64,000 bases of DNA. Source: an uncultured Clostridium sp. (GTDB lineage Bacteria > Bacillota > Clostridia > TANB77 > CAG-508). The DNA lies in NCBI GenBank assembly GCA_930982035.1, contig CAKNJL010000002.1, positions 1,416 to 65,415 on the forward strand, read 5' to 3'. The notes under the pieces were generated by a model, which saw nothing but the letters and a program-made list of their open reading frames with translations, was not told the origin of the DNA and ran no database searches. The position numbers and the translations under genes are program-made. Below, piece after piece: positions 13,280 to 41,657 of the stretch (position 1 is the first letter of the stretch; every line of letters starts with the position of its first letter).

Positions 13280-13494
13280 AAAAAAACCTCCTAAATTACT
13301 TCATTTGTATTCATTTGTACTAAGTATCTACTTTTTTTCCTAATATGTCAATAGTTTTTTAAAATGTAATATTATTTTAATATTTTTGTAACATAATTGT
13401 AATATTTGAATTGTAATATATCTCGACTCAAAATCATATATAATATATTTTTTCTCTTTAGTTGTGTAAAGTGGAATAGATGTACATCACCCCC

Positions 13495-14778
13495 CTATTC
13501 CACTTTACTCAAGTCGGGATTTAATACTATCTCATCATATAGTGCTATCTTTTTATATGATATTATTTCTTCACTTGTAAATCCTAATTCTTTTAATTCT
13601 TCTGTATCATATGGTTCTACAATAGAATATTTTTCTCCTTCTTTTTTTACTTTAACTAGAATTTTATTTAAATACCCAGCTCTATTTTGCACCACATATG
13701 CTAAATCATCTTGTTTTACAATGGCCTGATTAGGAATTTTTAACCCTGTTTCACTCCACCAAATTAAATCAAACGAAATTTTTCTATAACTTAATAATTC
13801 TTCAACACCTTTTTCTATTTTCAAAACTAGCACTTTTTCCTGATTTTCTTCTTGTAAAATGTAAGTTATCTCTGCTGAAACTTCTAAACCACTTGGCAAT
13901 CTTACTTTTACATTATCTCCAACTTGTGCATTTTGTGCCTGTTCTGTATTTGTTGCTACTGCAATATAACAATATGTATTATCAACAATTTTTCCACTTT
14001 CCTCACTAGTAGGTACTACTTTTCCAGTCTTTAAATCTAAATTTTCTAAATATTCTTTTGTCAAAGTAGAAAGACATTCTTCTGTTGGTTTTAACACATC
14101 TTCTAACCCATCAACTTTATATGATACTACTCCACTTTTACTAGAATTAACATACTCAGCCCCAGAATTTAGTTCATTCTCGTAATTTTTTCTTTCTTCA
14201 ATTAATTGTTTTAAATATGAACCTTGTGGACTTAAATCTCCAGCTATATTAGCTTTTTTAGTAATCAATTCATTAATTTCTTTTTTATATTCTTCTAATT
14301 TTGTTGTGTCATTAACATTACTTACTTCTAACAATTTTTGTTCTATTTGTGTTTCTATAGATTTCATATCACTTGTAAATAATTCTGTTTCGTTAGACAT
14401 TGCATCTTGTATTTTTGTATCTAGCTCTGCAATCTTTGATTTTAATGAATCTTCATTTTTTGTGTAATATCTAAATACTGCTTCATTAACAGCAACTTTC
14501 TCTCCTTCTGTCTTTATTTTTTCCATTCCATTTTTATAGTTTTGCCCTTGTATAATCGTCTCATCTCTTATTACATATCCTACGTCTGTTTCCTCTGAGT
14601 ATAATGTTCCTTCCTCTACTGTAAAAATATCTGTTGGTTGTTTGACCAATAAATATATTGTATAAGCTAGATATATTGCTATTAGTGCTATAACTATATA
14701 TATAATTATTTTTTTATTTAATTTTTTTGTTTTTTTCTCTTGTTCTTTTTCGAAAAATTCTTTTTTCTCTTCTTCCAA
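13495..14778 (-). CDS. HlyD-like membrane-fusion-type protein (N-terminal TM, coiled coil, beta-barrel)
   Basis: Assigned from architecture only: one TM helix, a long coiled coil and a C-terminal beta-rich region. No catalytic motif was seen. Confidence 0.45.
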   Translation of the reverse strand: MEEEKKEFFEKEQEKKTKKLNKKIIIYIVIALIAIYLAYTIYLLVKQPTDIFTVEEGTLYSEETDVGYVIRDETIIQGQNYKNGMEKIKTEGEKVAVNEAVFRYYTKNEDSLKSKIAELDTKIQDAMSNETELFTSDMKSIETQIEQKLLEVSNVNDTTKLEEYKKEINELITKKANIAGDLSPQGSYLKQLIEERKNYENELNSGAEYVNSSKSGVVSYKVDGLEDVLKPTEECLSTLTKEYLENLDLKTGKVVPTSEESGKIVDNTYCYIAVATNTEQAQNAQVGDNVKVRLPSGLEVSAEITYILQEENQEKVLVLKIEKGVEELLSYRKISFDLIWWSETGLKIPNQAIVKQDDLAYVVQNRAGYLNKILVKVKKEGEKYSIVEPYDTEELKELGFTSEEIISYKKIALYDEIVLNPDLSKVE

Positions 14779-22162: not shown

Positions 22163-23425
22163 TTATGCATCTAGTCCAGCTACATATCCTGTAGAATATG
22201 CGATTTGTAAATTAAACCCTCCTGTATAGCTATCTACATCTATTATTTCTCCAGCAAAATACAAGCCTTTTATTTTCTTAGATTCCATTGTTTTTGGATT
22301 TATTTCTTTTATATTTATTCCTCCACTTGTAATAATTGCTTCTTCTATTGGTCTAAATCCTTTTATTTCTATATCAAATTTTTTTATTGATTTTATTAAT
22401 TTCTCTCTTTCTTTTTTGGTTATTTCATTAACTTTTTTGTTAGGATCTATTTGTGCTCTTTTTATTATTATTGGAATTAGTTTTTGTGGAAGTAATTTGT
22501 CCAAACTATTTTTAAATTGTTTATTTTTAAATTCTTCAAAATCTCTTAAAATTCTATCATTTAATTTTTTACTATCTAATGCTGGTTTTAAATCTATTTC
22601 TAAAATTATCTTTTTTTCTTGAAATAATTTCTCAACATTTTTATATCTAACTAAATGAGCTGATGAACTTAAAATTGTAGGACCTGAAACACCAAAATGA
22701 GTAAATAGCATTTCTCCAAAATCTTCATATACCTCCTTATTTTTTTCCAAATCTTTTAACTTTATTGCAACATTTCTTAAACTTAAACCTTGTAGTTGTT
22801 TACATTCATTTTTATCATATACTTCTAATGGAACTAATGATGGCTTTATTGGAGTAATACTGTGTCCTAAATTTTCTGCTAATTTATATCCATCACCTGT
22901 TGAACCTGTTAATGGATAACTTTTGCCTCCTACTGCAAGTATTACTTTGTCTGCATCTAATGTTTCTTTATCAGTTTTTACTCCTACTATTTGAGTAACA
23001 CCATCTATAGTTTTTGTTAATATTTCAATTACTTTTGTATTATATTTTACTTCTATATTTAGCTCTTTTATTTTTCTTGTAAAACACTTCAAAACATCTA
23101 CTGATTTGTCAGTTATAGGAAAAATTCTATTTCCTCTTTCTTCTTTCACTTCTAATCCTTGTTCTTTCAAAAAATTAATAATGTCCTTGTTTGTATATTT
23201 TTGATAAACACTATATAAAAAATTTCCATTTCCTGGTGTATTTTTTATAAAGTCTTTTATTTCTAATGATGAAGTTATATTACATCTTCCTTTTCCTGTT
23301 ATTAATAACTTTTTTCCTAACTGATTATTCTTTTCTATTATTAAGACTTCATTTTTATTTTCTTTAGCTGTTATTGCTGACATCATTCCAGCAGGGCCTC
23401 CGCCTATCACAATTACTCTATTCAT
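22163..23425 (-). CDS. NAD(P)/FAD-dependent oxidoreductase of the HI0933/YhiN (BaiN-like) family
   Basis: The true start is MNRVIVIGGGPAGMMSA (Rossmann GxGxxG). The C-terminus reads GLYFAGEIIDVDSYTGGFNLQIAYSTGYVAG. The upstream 57 codons of the tracked ORF are just translation of a palindromic repeat. Confidence 0.85.
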   Translation of the reverse strand: MNRVIVIGGGPAGMMSAITAKENKNEVLIIEKNNQLGKKLLITGKGRCNITSSLEIKDFIKNTPGNGNFLYSVYQKYTNKDIINFLKEQGLEVKEERGNRIFPITDKSVDVLKCFTRKIKELNIEVKYNTKVIEILTKTIDGVTQIVGVKTDKETLDADKVILAVGGKSYPLTGSTGDGYKLAENLGHSITPIKPSLVPLEVYDKNECKQLQGLSLRNVAIKLKDLEKNKEVYEDFGEMLFTHFGVSGPTILSSSAHLVRYKNVEKLFQEKKIILEIDLKPALDSKKLNDRILRDFEEFKNKQFKNSLDKLLPQKLIPIIIKRAQIDPNKKVNEITKKEREKLIKSIKKFDIEIKGFRPIEEAIITSGGINIKEINPKTMESKKIKGLYFAGEIIDVDSYTGGFNLQIAYSTGYVAGLDA

Positions 23426-23453
23426 AAAAAATTCCTTTCTCTGTTTCTGCCCA

Positions 23454-23579
23454 TTTTGTCCATTTGGGAGGTTTCTCTTTTTGTCCATTGGGGACGTTTC
23501 TATTTGGACATTTTTATAAAAATGTCCAAATAGAAACGTCCCCAATGGACAAAAAGAGAAACCTCCCAAATGGACAAAA
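23454..23579. repeat. 126 bp perfect palindrome (63 + 63 nt, no loop) built from GGACA / TTGGGGACG units
   Basis: The left arm TTTTGTCCATTTGGGAGGTTTCTCTTTTTGTCCATTGGGGACGTTTCTATTTGGACATTTTTA is exactly reverse-complementary to the right arm. It is intergenic between 23596..24831 and the true start at 23425. Confidence 0.9.
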
Positions 23580-23595
23580 CGTCCCAAATTGGACA

Positions 23596-24831
23596 CTATT
23601 TTTTCATTTCTTCTATTGCTTTTAAAACTCCATATTTTCCATATTCATATGTTAATCCACCTTGCAAGTATGCAATATATGGCTCTCTTATTGGTCCATC
23701 ACAACTAAGTTCTATTGTTGATCCTTCTGTAAATGTTCCCGCTGCCATGATTACTTCATCTTCATATCCTCCCATAGGACTTGGTTCTGGTATTACATTT
23801 GAATCTATTGGTGACCCCTTTTGTATTCCTTGGCAAAATCTTATTAACTTTTCTGCTGTTCCTAAATGTATTGTTTGAACTATATCTGCTCTTTCTTCAT
23901 TATATTTTGGCTCTACATCATATCCTAATTCTTCTAAAATGCAACTTGCAAAAATGGCTGTTTTCATACTACTTGCTACGACTTGTGGTGCAAAAAATAA
24001 TCCTTTTAGTAAGTTTGTATTTTGGTTTAATGATGGTCCTATTTCTTTTCCTATTCCTGGTGCTGTTAGTCTTTCTGCACATAATTCTATTAATTTTTCT
24101 TTTCCTACTATATATGCTCCACTTGTTGCAATACCTGCACCTAAATTTTTCATTAATGACCCAACAGCTATATCTGCTCCAACTTCTATTGGTTCCTTAT
24201 CTTGAACAAATTCTCCATAACAGTTATCTACCATTATAATTACTTCTTGATTTACTTCTCTTATAGCTTTTATTGCTTTTTCTATTTTTTCTATTGTTAA
24301 ACTTTTTCTTGTAGAATATCCTCTTGATCTTTGAATCTCAACTAGTTTAACATCTTTTTTTGATAATCTATTTTGTATTTTTTCTATATCAAAGTCATTA
24401 TCTTTTAATTCTATTTGTTCATATTTCACATCATATGCTTTTAGTGAACTCGCACTTACTTCTTTTCCTATTCCTATTACTGTTTGTAATGTATCATATG
24501 GTTCTCCTGTTATGCTTATCATTGTATCATTAGGACGTAATAGTGCTGATAATGTGATTGCCAAGGCATGTGTTCCTGAAATAAATTGTGTTCTTACTAA
24601 ACTATCTTCTGCTTTAAATATTTGGGCATATATTTCTTCTATTTTATTCCTTCCTGCTTCGTCTATACCATATCCTGTAGAACTTGCTAAATGTATTTCT
24701 TGTAAATTGCATTCTTGAAATGCCTCTATTACTTTTATACTATTTTTTTCACATATTTCTTCTATTTGTCTAAATTGTGGCTCTATTTTTTTCTCTACCT
24801 TTTTTGATAATTCTAATAAATCTTTATTCAT
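23596..24831 (-). CDS. YnbB-type PLP-dependent (Cys/Met-metabolism lyase-like, aluminium-resistance family) protein
   Basis: 411 aa. Motifs SSTGYGIDEAGRNKIEEIYAQIFKAEDSLVR and ISGTHAL are typical of the YnbB family. Confidence 0.7.
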   Translation of the reverse strand: MNKDLLELSKKVEKKIEPQFRQIEEICEKNSIKVIEAFQECNLQEIHLASSTGYGIDEAGRNKIEEIYAQIFKAEDSLVRTQFISGTHALAITLSALLRPNDTMISITGEPYDTLQTVIGIGKEVSASSLKAYDVKYEQIELKDNDFDIEKIQNRLSKKDVKLVEIQRSRGYSTRKSLTIEKIEKAIKAIREVNQEVIIMVDNCYGEFVQDKEPIEVGADIAVGSLMKNLGAGIATSGAYIVGKEKLIELCAERLTAPGIGKEIGPSLNQNTNLLKGLFFAPQVVASSMKTAIFASCILEELGYDVEPKYNEERADIVQTIHLGTAEKLIRFCQGIQKGSPIDSNVIPEPSPMGGYEDEVIMAAGTFTEGSTIELSCDGPIREPYIAYLQGGLTYEYGKYGVLKAIEEMKK

Positions 24832-38503: not shown

Positions 38504-38523
38504 TTTTTTATCCTTTCATTGAA

Positions 38524-38709
38524 CATTGGGGACGTGTCAAATTGGACATTTTTTGTCCAAAAGGGACAGGTCCTTTTTCCAATTACAAATTTGAAGTAAC
38601 AAAAAAATATTCAATTTGATGTTACTCTAGTTTATTAATTTTTACTTATATTTTTCTGGGTCCTGTCCCTTTTGGACAAAAAATGTCCAATTTGACACGT
38701 CCCCAATAG
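38524..38709. repeat. MITE-like unit: ~50 bp inverted repeats (38524-38572 and 38658-38709) flanking an 85 bp spacer
   Basis: CATTGGGGACGTGTCAAATTGGACATTTTTTGTCCAAAAGGGACAGGTCC pairs with its reverse complement with 1-2 mismatches. Confidence 0.85.
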
Positions 38710-39894
38710 CCTACCTTCTGATATATATGAATTTTTTAATTCTCTCATTGCTCCATAGTCTATTAATTTTCTTTTGTAATATTTAATTAATTTACTATAG
38801 TCAGTTTTTGGTTTATTTTCACGAATATTTTTCATGTCATTTTTTATAAATAAAATTTCTTTTTGCCTTACATATTCTATGAAGTTTGTTTCTTTCAATT
38901 TGCAAATTTCTTTATATTTATTCCAAAATGCTTTAAATTCTTCTCTGTCCTTTGGATTTTCCCAATACACTTTTGTTGATAATAATTTTACATTATAATC
39001 TTCAAATAGATTTATAAGCATACTATAGGCTTTTTCTCTTTTGGTTGCTATTTTTGTGTCTTGAACTAGAATTCTTGCATCTTTTAATAATTTTTCATAA
39101 CATTGTATTGCAACTATTAGTGGTAAACTATGTGTAAATAATTTTCTACTAATGCTTAATAATACTACATTTTTCTCTATATTGTCTTTTGTATCCAATT
39201 TTCCTACTGTGTAAGTTTCATAATTTTCGTATTCTTTCATCACGTCTTTTGTATCTTCGTCTTTACCCATTTTTATTTTTAATGATAAAATATTTTGAAT
39301 ATATTCTTCTAGTGTATAAAATATTTTTGTATATATCCATTCTTTTGAACTTTCATAAGCATTAGTTGTGTCTGCAAGTTTTATTGAGTAGTTTTTTAAT
39401 ATTGCTTTATATAATGTATCCATTTTAGATATATAAAACTCATTAAATCTTGATATTAATTTTTCTTTTCCTGATAATTGGATTCCATCATTATCTAATT
39501 CTAGTAAATATTTTTGTTTTCTGTTTTTATATTCGACAAATTCATTTTCTTTAAGACTTGTTACTTCATAATATTTAGATAATGCATTTTTTTCAAATTC
39601 TGATGCTGTATTATTTTTTACTTTTTTATAAATTGAGTCCATTACATATTTATCTAGTGTTTCTAAATAATGTTCATATGCCATATCATATTTTTTTTCA
39701 GCATCTTTTTGATTATAATTTTCATCACTTTTTTGATATGTTTCAAATGCTTTTAATAAGTTATTTCTTTTTATAGAAATCAACATTCCATTAATTCCTA
39801 TTTTTGTTGGTATTAACATTTTTGTTAAAGTTTTTGTTATTTTATTAAAAAATGTTTTATCTGTTCCTGTAATTCTCAAGCTTTTTTCTTCCAT
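38635..39894 (-). CDS. Hypothetical protein occupying the slot where phoH/yqfF usually sit. The last ~20 codons are supplied by a repeat element.
   Basis: 419 aa helical K/E/Y-rich ORF. The C-terminus LLGTCQIGHFLSKRDRTQKNISKN is translated from repeat 38658-38709. Confidence 0.55.
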   Translation of the reverse strand: MEEKSLRITGTDKTFFNKITKTLTKMLIPTKIGINGMLISIKRNNLLKAFETYQKSDENYNQKDAEKKYDMAYEHYLETLDKYVMDSIYKKVKNNTASEFEKNALSKYYEVTSLKENEFVEYKNRKQKYLLELDNDGIQLSGKEKLISRFNEFYISKMDTLYKAILKNYSIKLADTTNAYESSKEWIYTKIFYTLEEYIQNILSLKIKMGKDEDTKDVMKEYENYETYTVGKLDTKDNIEKNVVLLSISRKLFTHSLPLIVAIQCYEKLLKDARILVQDTKIATKREKAYSMLINLFEDYNVKLLSTKVYWENPKDREEFKAFWNKYKEICKLKETNFIEYVRQKEILFIKNDMKNIRENKPKTDYSKLIKYYKRKLIDYGAMRELKNSYISEGRLLGTCQIGHFLSKRDRTQKNISKN

Positions 39895-41551: not shown

Positions 41552-41657
41552 AAATGATGATTTGGGGACGGAGAAAAAATCATCGTTTTTTATTACTATT
41601 TATATAAATTTTTTTCTAAAAATGATGATTTTTTCTCCGTCCCCAAATCATCATTTT
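41552..41657. repeat. 33 bp perfect inverted repeats (AAATGATGATTTGGGGACGGAGAAAAAATCATC) flanking a 40 bp spacer
   Basis: Read directly. It sits between the yqfC start and the deacetylase gene, and contains that gene's stop codon. Confidence 0.85.

Follow-up and report, generated by a model that had tools for sequence, protein, structure and literature searches.

What kind of element is a long, perfectly symmetrical inverted repeat that fills the space between two genes, and how did its arms come to be identical? These questions are raised by a 126-bp palindrome at positions 23454-23579 of a 64,000-nucleotide stretch of contig CAKNJL010000002.1 (GenBank assembly GCA_930982035.1, positions 1,416 to 65,415; hereafter, the window, whose positions are used below unless a contig is named). 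The source is a metagenome-assembled genome (MAG) of an uncultured Clostridia bacterium, mainly from chicken-gut metagenomes, comprising 107 contigs (C numbers) and 2.2 Mb at 26% G+C and 88% completeness. The palindrome is very probably a cluster of nonautonomous elements like the repetitive extragenic palindromes (REPs) and REPINs, of the type found with tyrosine transposases associated with terminal inverted repeats (TIRs; TIRYTs). We term these elements family A; presumably they are mobilized in trans by a Y1 transposase encoded on contig C32.

A repeat search delimited two arms, 23454-23516 and 23517-23579, each of 63 nt, 100% complementary and separated by a 0-nt spacer, and a separate script found the 126-mer identical to its own reverse complement, bearing out the original prediction of a perfect palindrome with exact 63-nt arms and no loop. 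Each arm is built from two direct modules of 25 nt with 88% mutual identity, TTTTGTCCATTTGGGAGGTTTCTCT and TTTTGTCCATTGGGGACGTTTCTAT, followed by TTGGACATTTTTA. The parts of the locus are as follows:

23454 to 23579, no strand: whole palindrome, a head-to-head cluster (3' tails facing) of family-A REP-like units, two modules per arm (repeat search and script)
23454 to 23478, plus strand: outer degenerate 25-nt module of the left arm, TTTTGTCCATTTGGGAGGTTTCTCT, 88% identical to the inner module and with two mismatches to the unit 20-mer
23479 to 23516, plus strand: inner full unit of the left arm, TTTTGTCCATTGGGGACGTTTCTATTTGGACATTTTTA (nhmmer match C2:24895-24931, 42.3 bits, E = 1e-10)
23517 to 23554, minus strand: inner full unit of the right arm, exact mirror of 23479-23516 (nhmmer match C2:24932-24968, 42.3 bits)
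23555 to 23579, minus strand: outer degenerate module of the right arm, exact mirror of 23454-23478 (repeat search and script)
23580 to 23595, minus strand: third, truncated module, forward letters CGTCCCAAATTGGACA, minus strand TGTCCAATTTGGGACG, the first 16 nt of a unit
23441 to 23453, plus strand: possible, weak remnant of a third module on the left side, CTGTTTCTGCCCA

The left inner unit folds as a TGTCCA/TGGACA stem around a 17-nt loop containing GGGGACG, with a T-rich tail behind it, and its sequence type occurs twice in the genome, both times within the palindrome. The outer module, a variant unique to this locus, is without the closing TGGACA and differs from the inner module at three positions; these private substitutions (TTTGGGAGG...TCT versus TTGGGGACG...TAT in the inner module) are mirrored exactly between the arms. 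Partial extra units had been proposed on both flanks. The right one stands, as it corresponds to nucleotides 1 to 16 of a minus-strand unit, whereas on the left only GTTTCTG resembles a unit tail and the unit profile gave no nhmmer detection at 23441-23453. Within the window, the unit 20-mer had five matches against 0 in 100 shuffles and GGGGACG had six against 0.15 expected, which excludes a chance origin. As single-stranded DNA, either strand of the palindrome is predicted to form a hairpin of -74 kcal/mol (z -22).

A palindrome of this kind in a short-read metagenome could have been made by the assembler, either as a fold-back chimera or by the collapse of two slightly different arms into perfection. 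The fragmented and incomplete state of the source MAG favors this explanation, as do the several contigs that end inside such repeats (the end of C41 and the starts of C86 and C94) and the fact that De Bruijn graphs see the two arms as the same nodes. However, Logan contigs from four chicken-gut runs, belonging to four studies, covered positions 23250-23483, 23502-23579, and 23550-23800 with 0 differences; they tied each locus-specific outer module to its unique flank, and one of them spanned the center through the outer module. Because the independent contigs of four runs agree, recovering both the arms and the center, a fold-back artifact of one assembly is very unlikely, and the concern expressed in the original prediction is largely refuted. 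The flanking genes are also adjacent in relatives, and imperfect doublets in the same MAG were assembled as imperfect (e.g., C36:9280-9400 and C5), arguing against a systematic collapse of arms. Given that the Logan contigs are short-read assemblies made with k = 31, an extra copy of the multicopy inner unit may exist at the locus; an assembly origin for the palindrome, or for its perfection, is scarcely credible.

Far from being a singular element, as it had first appeared, the palindrome is one of 59 family-A loci, which together gave 75 nhmmer profile matches across the whole MAG. A stricter pattern retained 64 full units of 30 sequence types, with the consensus WW-TGTCCA(A)TTGGGGACGTTTCyn(T)TTTGGACA-TTTT(T)AT(G). 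Units are roughly 35 to 42 nt long and consist of an A/T-rich stem of 6 to 11 bp, TGTCCA(A)/(T)TGGACA, a conserved 17-nt loop with the box TTGGGGACGTTTC, and a T-rich 3' tail. Sequences flanking 62 units agree only in a 5' W-W and a 3' T-run, a run of T4-5 following the stem in 57 to 59 of the 62. The predicted DNA hairpin of a single unit is weak (-3 to -8 kcal/mol, z -4.6 to -4.9). A known RNA family was considered and rejected, as an Rfam search at a permissive E-value returned 25 matches, all under the gathering scores (generic long-hairpin miRNA models and Phe-leader).

The loop box extends beyond family A. GGGGACG occurs 291 times in the genome, against about 9 expected, and 262 of these occurrences lie outside open reading frame (ORF) calls. 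It is common to at least five further repeat families with different stems, namely GGGGACGTGTCAAA (in elements resembling miniature inverted-repeat transposable elements, MITEs), GGGACGGTCC, GGGGACGGAGATTT, GGGGACGGAGAAAA, and GGGACGGGCCAAATCG. Two other repeats in the window carry related features. At 38519-38710 lies a MITE-like element of about 190 bp whose inverted ends of about 47 bp (TTGGGGACGTGTCAAATTGGACATTTTTTGTCCAAAAGGGACAGGTCC) contain a GGGGACG box; about 44 ends of this family are present in the genome, some in versions of 350 to 440 bp, several contigs end inside them, and no cognate Y1 gene was identified for the TTGGGGACGTGTCAAATTGGACATTTTTTGTCCAAAAGGGACAGGTCC family in the genome. 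At 41553-41655 lies a doublet of another family, AATGATGATTTGGGGACGGAGAAAAAATCATC with a 40-nt spacer and its mirror, the unit of which also flanks a Y1 paralog on C38 and fills the junction orthologous to that of the palindrome in a related species, G010.

Seven proteins of the MAG matched Y1_Tnp, one of them a true IS200 TnpA and six resembling REP-associated tyrosine transposases (RAYTs) of about 240 to 262 aa. The six RAYT-like proteins share 25 to 31% mutual identity, with invariant N-H-x-H (the HUH motif) and Y-I-x-x-N-P motifs. For those on C32 and C10 the best NCBIfam model was NF047646, REP-associated tyrosine transposase (71.5 and 77.1 bits), versus 26.5 and 19.6 bits with the IS200 model, and a profile of the six paralogs had as its best match in the PDB 4ER8, the E. 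coli TnpA-REP (E = 2.6e-4), with the HUH and Y motifs aligned. All six have a tail of about 110 to 130 residues behind the Y1 core. Pfam matches to helix-turn-helix (HTH) domains in this tail were sub-threshold for C10 (HTH_DeoR, HTH_11, and HTH_23), none was reported for C32, and a fusion protein on C67 reached 29.9 bits with HTH_26, against a threshold of 22. The C67 ORF (C67:2160-3530, 457 aa) combines the RAYT-like Y1 domain and HTH with a ComF-like phosphoribosyltransferase domain that includes a double zinc ribbon, and may be a fusion or two genes run together; no GGGGACG repeats flank it. The canonical IS200-type tnpA (C84:369-866, 166 aa, 150.6 bits to NF033573) carries at its ends G+C-rich hairpins of its own that bear no relation to the GGGGACG families.

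The transposase gene at C32:13709-14494 is single-copy and lies between inverted family-A units. One, at 13337(+), is 364 nt upstream, behind the stop codon of the preceding gene, while the other, at 14497-14537(-), begins 2 nt past the transposase stop, just before radA. The transposase genes on C10, C53, and C38 are each bracketed by inverted copies of their own, different GGGGACG-core family, and that on C25 has one GGGGACG-core unit on one side only. This layout of one repeat family per paralog, found here for C32, C10, C53, and C38, is the REPtron arrangement described for RAYTs (PMC6006769). The original suggestion of a mobile palindromic element is thus supported: the palindrome is formed by head-to-head copies of a dispersed hairpin repeat, and further copies lie around a single-copy Y1/HUH gene of the RAYT/TIRYT-like kind.

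Homologs of the C32 protein numbered 732 at E <= 1e-10, many of them on contigs of about 1 kb, as is expected for a gene bracketed by repeats. The genes around the orthologs of 69% and 55% identity follow the order MreB, MiaB-like, small ORF, transposase, RadA, DisA, as on C32, and this conserved order indicates vertical inheritance of the C32-type transposase; one ortholog, at 57% identity, is in another gene context. The flanking repeats co-vary with the orthologous transposase. The 69% ortholog (locus L135 of a related MAG) is flanked by family-A units, the 57% ortholog (L137) is bordered on either side by tandem TGTCGCA-N17-TGCGACA units that share the design of stem and 17-nt loop, and the 55% ortholog (L139) has the flanks TGGGGACAGTCCCCA, including GGGGACAG, which matches the published TIRYT inverted-repeat motif GGGGWSAS (PMC3733652; PMC6006769) in full. 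The flanks of the Y1 genes in the chicken-gut MAG itself read GGGGACGT or GGGGACGG, agreeing with the first six of the eight positions of that motif.

The presence of MITE-like elements of 180 to 440 bp in the same genome (e.g., 38519-38710), with TIRs of 45 to 50 bp and a GGGGACG box, speaks for reading the palindrome as a classical MITE, that is, a deletion derivative of an insertion sequence (IS) of the DDE type, moved by way of its TIRs and leaving target-site duplications. Yet no direct repeat surrounds the palindrome (left ...TTTCTGCCCA, right CGTCCC...), the flanks of the 62 units yield only the W-W and T-run described above, and a full-length IS with such ends was not seen. Moreover, the genes flanked by the units encode Y1/HUH enzymes, a family that leaves no target duplication. 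A classical MITE is accordingly a most improbable identity for the palindrome. Bacterial MITEs such as Correia/NEMIS, RUP, bcr1, and ERIC resemble family A in being small, noncoding intergenic repeats that form long hairpins when transcribed and can alter the expression of neighboring genes; they differ in having TIRs that match a DDE IS and target-site duplications, neither of which was seen for family A.

By shared features rather than by phylogenetic placement in subclass 2.1, the closest described systems are the TIRtrons with their TIRYTs (Di Nocera et al. 2013, PMC3733652). According to Quentin et al. 2018 (PMC6006769), TIRYTs correspond to TnpA-Y1 subclass 2.1 and to the RAYT Group 1 described by Bertels et al. 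2017 (PMC5581495); Clostridia are among the bacteria in which this group has been noted. Like family A and its relatives, TIRtrons have a Y1/HUH transposase about 250 aa long that carries an HTH-like extension at its C terminus (mostly weak HTH matches here), a gene placed between inverted repeats with a GGGG-A/T-C/G box, repeats dispersed as singles, dimers, and clusters, and several paralogs, each with its own repeat. They differ in that the box here is GGGGACG(T/G), matching GGGGWSAS at 6/8 positions (fully only in the ortholog flank GGGGACAG), and in that the repeats here, instead of long TIRs, are short hairpins whose 17-nt loop holds the box. Further differences are the number of families and boxes, at least five and about 290 in one 2.2-Mb genome, and the host, an uncultured chicken-gut Clostridium. 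Quentin et al. found no REP-like sequences beside subclass 2.1 genes (PMC6006769).

A wider resemblance is to the REP/BIME/REPIN-RAYT systems known in E. coli and Pseudomonas (Nunvar 2010; Bertels & Rainey 2011, PMC3116915; Ton-Hoang 2012; 4ER8). In both, short extragenic hairpin repeats are present in tens to hundreds of copies and tend to sit just downstream of stop codons, inverted doublets (seven here) form long hairpins, and a single-copy, vertically inherited Y1 gene lies inside its own repeats as a REPtron, with one family per paralog. The enzyme in this genome carries the HUH and catalytic Y motifs and is closer to TnpA-REP than to IS200 TnpA. Unlike those systems, family A is without a 5' GTAG/GTGG foot and has short A/T-rich stems with a long conserved loop; its transposase has an added, putatively HTH-bearing tail and an NCBIfam RAYT score just under the cut-off; and singles outnumber doublets, every doublet being a homodimer. 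The CGTC-tagged REPs (Di Nocera et al. 2013), which include Rickettsia RPE and Neisseria dRS3, likewise contain CGTC, the reverse complement of GACG, occur mainly as head-to-head dimers, and form several families per genome. Their CGTC, however, is an unpaired tag at the end of an 8- to 9-bp stem with a 4- to 5-nt loop, and no dedicated transposase was found for them, whereas in the present genome the loop contains CGTCCCC and Y1 genes are flanked by the families. The tetranucleotide in common could be a coincidence.

The symmetry of the palindrome recurs elsewhere in the genome. Family A forms seven head-to-head doublets, and all seven have identical arms, compared with 6.8% identity among random pairs of units (permutation p < 1e-5); no doublets of the opposite polarity were present among the family-A units of the genome. 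Three unit variants, including that of the palindrome, are confined to doublets, and two doublets on C36 have the same architecture as the palindrome, each side again consisting of an outer module without a stem and a full inner unit. Identical arms in every doublet, together with the mirrored private substitutions, imply that doublets are mirror copies of one arm or were later homogenized, and did not arise from two independent insertions. They also support in part the earlier proposal of a recent origin or active maintenance. The argument from instability on which that proposal rested is weaker than stated, since the length beyond which a perfect palindrome is strongly unstable in E. coli is no shorter than 126 bp, and a crude motif screen of the 88%-complete MAG, a weak negative, did not find canonical SbcCD. 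The screen yielded SMC, an AddB-like protein, an ABC ATPase, and a Metallophos + AAA_27 pair of the YhaO/YhaN-like type. This pair, at C60:3555-6730, consists of a Metallophos protein (Mre11/SbcD-like, 351 aa) and an AAA_27 coiled-coil ATPase (676 aa) for which a membrane segment is predicted.

Related MAG species have a 62-bp heterodimer of the family at many loci, indicating that doublets can spread as units. In one related species this heterodimer, TGTCCATTGGGGACGTTTCTTTTTGGACA-AAAA-TGTCCATTTGGAAACGTCCCTATTGGACA and often TTTTTGTCCAC after it, is the dominant family-A form (L029, L034, L037, L054, L069, L070, L085, and L101), and there the doublet rather than the single unit seems to be what is spreading. 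Two further cases concern the ends and centers of units. At C55:6498-6685, a palindrome of another family (GGGATTGAGGGACGGTCCTTGAATCCCTG...) occupies the exact center of a family-A doublet, in place of the TGGACA-spacer-TGTCCA core, which suggests that doublet centers are sites of insertion or exchange. Comparison of C9:36726-36790 with L114:100-160, from near-identical strains (98% flank identity), showed that homology stops exactly at the family-A 3' tail (after ...TTTTTATGTAAATGT), a hint of rearrangement at unit ends; the unit itself differs by a one-base stem indel.

Single units are placed nonrandomly with respect to genes. At 16 of 39 single-unit loci the TGTCCA end lies 0 to 4 nt past a stop codon of the same sense, whereas 0.83 would be expected from random placement within the same intergenic gaps (p < 5e-6). 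In a common form, stop and unit abut as ...ATAA followed directly by TGTCCA. The 39 loci include C4:61245, C11:17434, C15:13591, C31, and C32:13337. A corresponding rule that units abut ribosome-binding sites was dropped (7 observed vs. 3.7 expected, p = 0.06). Beside the palindrome, the truncated third module begins at the first base past the TAG of the upstream gene, at distance 0 (entry C2 - 52169).

Attachment to stop codons, together with the T4-5 run behind the stem in 57 to 59 of 62 units, is what would be expected if the units were mainly host cis-regulatory RNA, selected at gene ends as terminators or as hairpins for mRNA stability or translation, with the palindrome a strengthened version and the link to transposases incidental or historical. 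REPs near stop codons in E. coli have been reported to influence translation and mRNA stability (cited in PMC6006769). A read-through transcript of the palindrome is predicted to fold into a perfect 63-bp hairpin of -116 kcal/mol (z -17), and a pattern scan flagged terminator-like matches, although only as 5-bp inner stems (TGTCC-N5-GGACG) with the T-rich tail. Against this stand the 6- to 11-bp A/T-rich stem and 17-nt loop of the unit, which at -3 to -8 kcal/mol as DNA make a poor intrinsic terminator, and the palindrome itself, which has no T-run behind it on either strand (the sense strand continues AAAATGGGC, the other CGTCCC). No Rfam family reached threshold, occupancy of the orthologous junction varies among species (empty, other families, or an extra gene), and the copies of units around Y1 transposase genes are left unexplained. 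As a primary account it is unlikely, yet a cis-regulatory role is compatible with the transposase-mobilized elements proposed here as a secondary co-option. A Rho-independent terminator was rejected because no U-tract follows the palindrome and the unit loop is 17 nt. With neither a U-tract behind the hairpin nor, by pattern scan, a promoter-like site in or beside the palindrome, its predicted effect on a transcript would be processing or stabilization rather than classical termination.

The palindrome occupies the gap from the stop codon of one gene to the ribosome-binding site of the next, both on the minus strand:

23596 to 24831, minus strand: upstream gene, pyridoxal phosphate-dependent enzyme of PF06838 'Met_gamma_lyase' (YnbB/aluminum-resistance-like), 411 aa (Pfam PF06838, 570.9 bits)
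22163 to 23425, minus strand: downstream gene, HI0933-like/TIGR00275 flavin adenine dinucleotide flavoprotein, 420 aa (TIGR00275, 480.7 bits over residues 4-417; PF03486)

The stop codon of the upstream gene, TAG at 23596-23598, is also present at the empty sites of relatives and is hence native, not supplied by the element. The true start of the downstream gene is ATG 23425, in agreement with the starts of orthologs, with the ribosome-binding site GAAAGGAA at about 23432-23440; from the palindrome to this ATG there are 28 nt, GAAAGGAA included. The family-A unit in forward orientation is open in all three frames, and an ORF of 477 aa with a GTG start (22163..23596) reads through the palindrome. 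The original prediction took its N-terminal extension to be spurious, and rightly so, as the match to TIGR00275/HI0933 starts only with the 420-aa form, at residue 3-4 counted from its ATG.

The PF06838 and HI0933-like genes are adjacent in congeneric species also. In five congeners the junction is 5 to 57 bp long and repeat-free, in seven it contains an extra gene of about 1 kb, and in four other species it holds other hairpin-repeat families: an GGGGACGGAGAAAAA palindrome in species G010 (L003), TGTGTCA-N17-TGACACA tandems in G024 (L008), a short repeat with an AAAGACCAGTCCTTCAATCCC core in G016 (L007), and a ++- cluster of TTGCCA-N17-TGGCAA units in a mouse-gut MAG. Among the junction repeats at L003, L007, L008, and L021:5090-5230, three share the design of a stem with a loop of roughly 17 nt (TGTGTCA/TGACACA, TTGCCA/TGGCAA, and GATGAT/ATCATC). 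As occupancy differs among species, the junction is either a recurrent landing place or the site of an old occupant turning over along with its transposase. Empty and filled orthologous sites were compared across 107 loci of related MAGs, a set with too few alignable intergenic pairs to define insertion boundaries.

Variable occupancy also bears on another function raised by the original prediction, that of a protein-binding array. Such an array would use the 25-nt modules as iteron-like sites for a regulatory or nucleoid protein, with the palindrome as a high-affinity site controlling both neighboring genes. The 25-nt period with its repeated GTCC/GGAC half-sites would suit such an array, as would the HTH-like C-terminal tail of the associated transposases (weak Pfam HTH matches; PMC6006769 for subclass 2.1). 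However, copies adjoin unrelated genes of all functions, the junction is empty in congeners that conserve both genes, and no promoter-like site accompanies the palindrome, so that regulation through such an array is very unlikely.

In the mechanism we favor, by analogy with E. coli TnpA-REP and IS200/IS605 TnpA, family-A units would be recognized as folded single-stranded DNA and cut and rejoined in trans by the single-copy, vertically inherited HUH/Y1 tyrosine transposase with a putative C-terminal HTH tail (C32:13709-14494). At the present locus, an array of modules fills precisely the interval from the upstream stop codon to the downstream ribosome-binding site. The arms of this array would be identical if the doublet arose, or stays symmetrical, by inverted duplication or template switching across the hairpin and not by two independent insertions, and the hairpin of a read-through transcript would be a by-product, acting as a processing or stability element rather than as a classical terminator. 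Catalysis by the C32 enzyme, the route to symmetry, and the effect on RNA are inferences within this scheme.

Several observations weigh against this mechanism. The transposase lies on another contig than the palindrome, and the link between them is one of shared sequence. The NF047646 scores of the C32 and C10 proteins fall just under the curated cut-off of 80, and a PDB search with the single C32 sequence returned nothing relevant. The canonical 5' GTAG/GTGG foot of REPs was absent from the 62 unit flanks, which show W-W only, and the box lies in the loop instead of at the foot of the hairpin. Single units are split 26:16 with respect to the G-rich (leading) strand, a weaker bias than that of genes, 85% of which are on the leading strand, so an IS608-like preference for the lagging template is not evident. 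The site was filled in all four samples examined, with no empty allele seen within the species. Template switching at quasi-palindromes is known to perfect inverted repeats, and the identity of the arms could stem from such ordinary replication events, with no role for a transposase.

More speculatively, the Y1 enzyme might make identical-arm doublets directly. It would cut at the T-rich 3' tail of a unit and link the cut end to the complementary strand in a "turn-around" (hairpin) reaction akin to rolling-hairpin HUH chemistry, thereby mirroring the sequence next to the unit. Placement of unit 5' ends on the first base after stop codons would be due to the same enzyme, or to its coupling to the single-stranded DNA that expressed genes expose at their ends. 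We consider this improbable; if true, the system would create and keep re-perfecting palindromes at gene junctions.

REP/RAYT systems are well studied almost only in Proteobacteria, and the present host is little studied. Its genome shows a Y1 enzyme like those of the HTH-bearing subclass together with clear cognate hairpin families, where one systematic survey found no REP-like repeats (PMC6006769), and at least five families with one common loop box coexist in 2.2 Mb. For annotation, such repeats break MAG assemblies, fill operon junctions with very stable hairpins, and, having no stop codons, give rise to false N-terminal extensions of ORFs. For the biology of the family, they offer two clean, quantifiable regularities, the attachment of units to stop codons and the always-identical arms of doublets.

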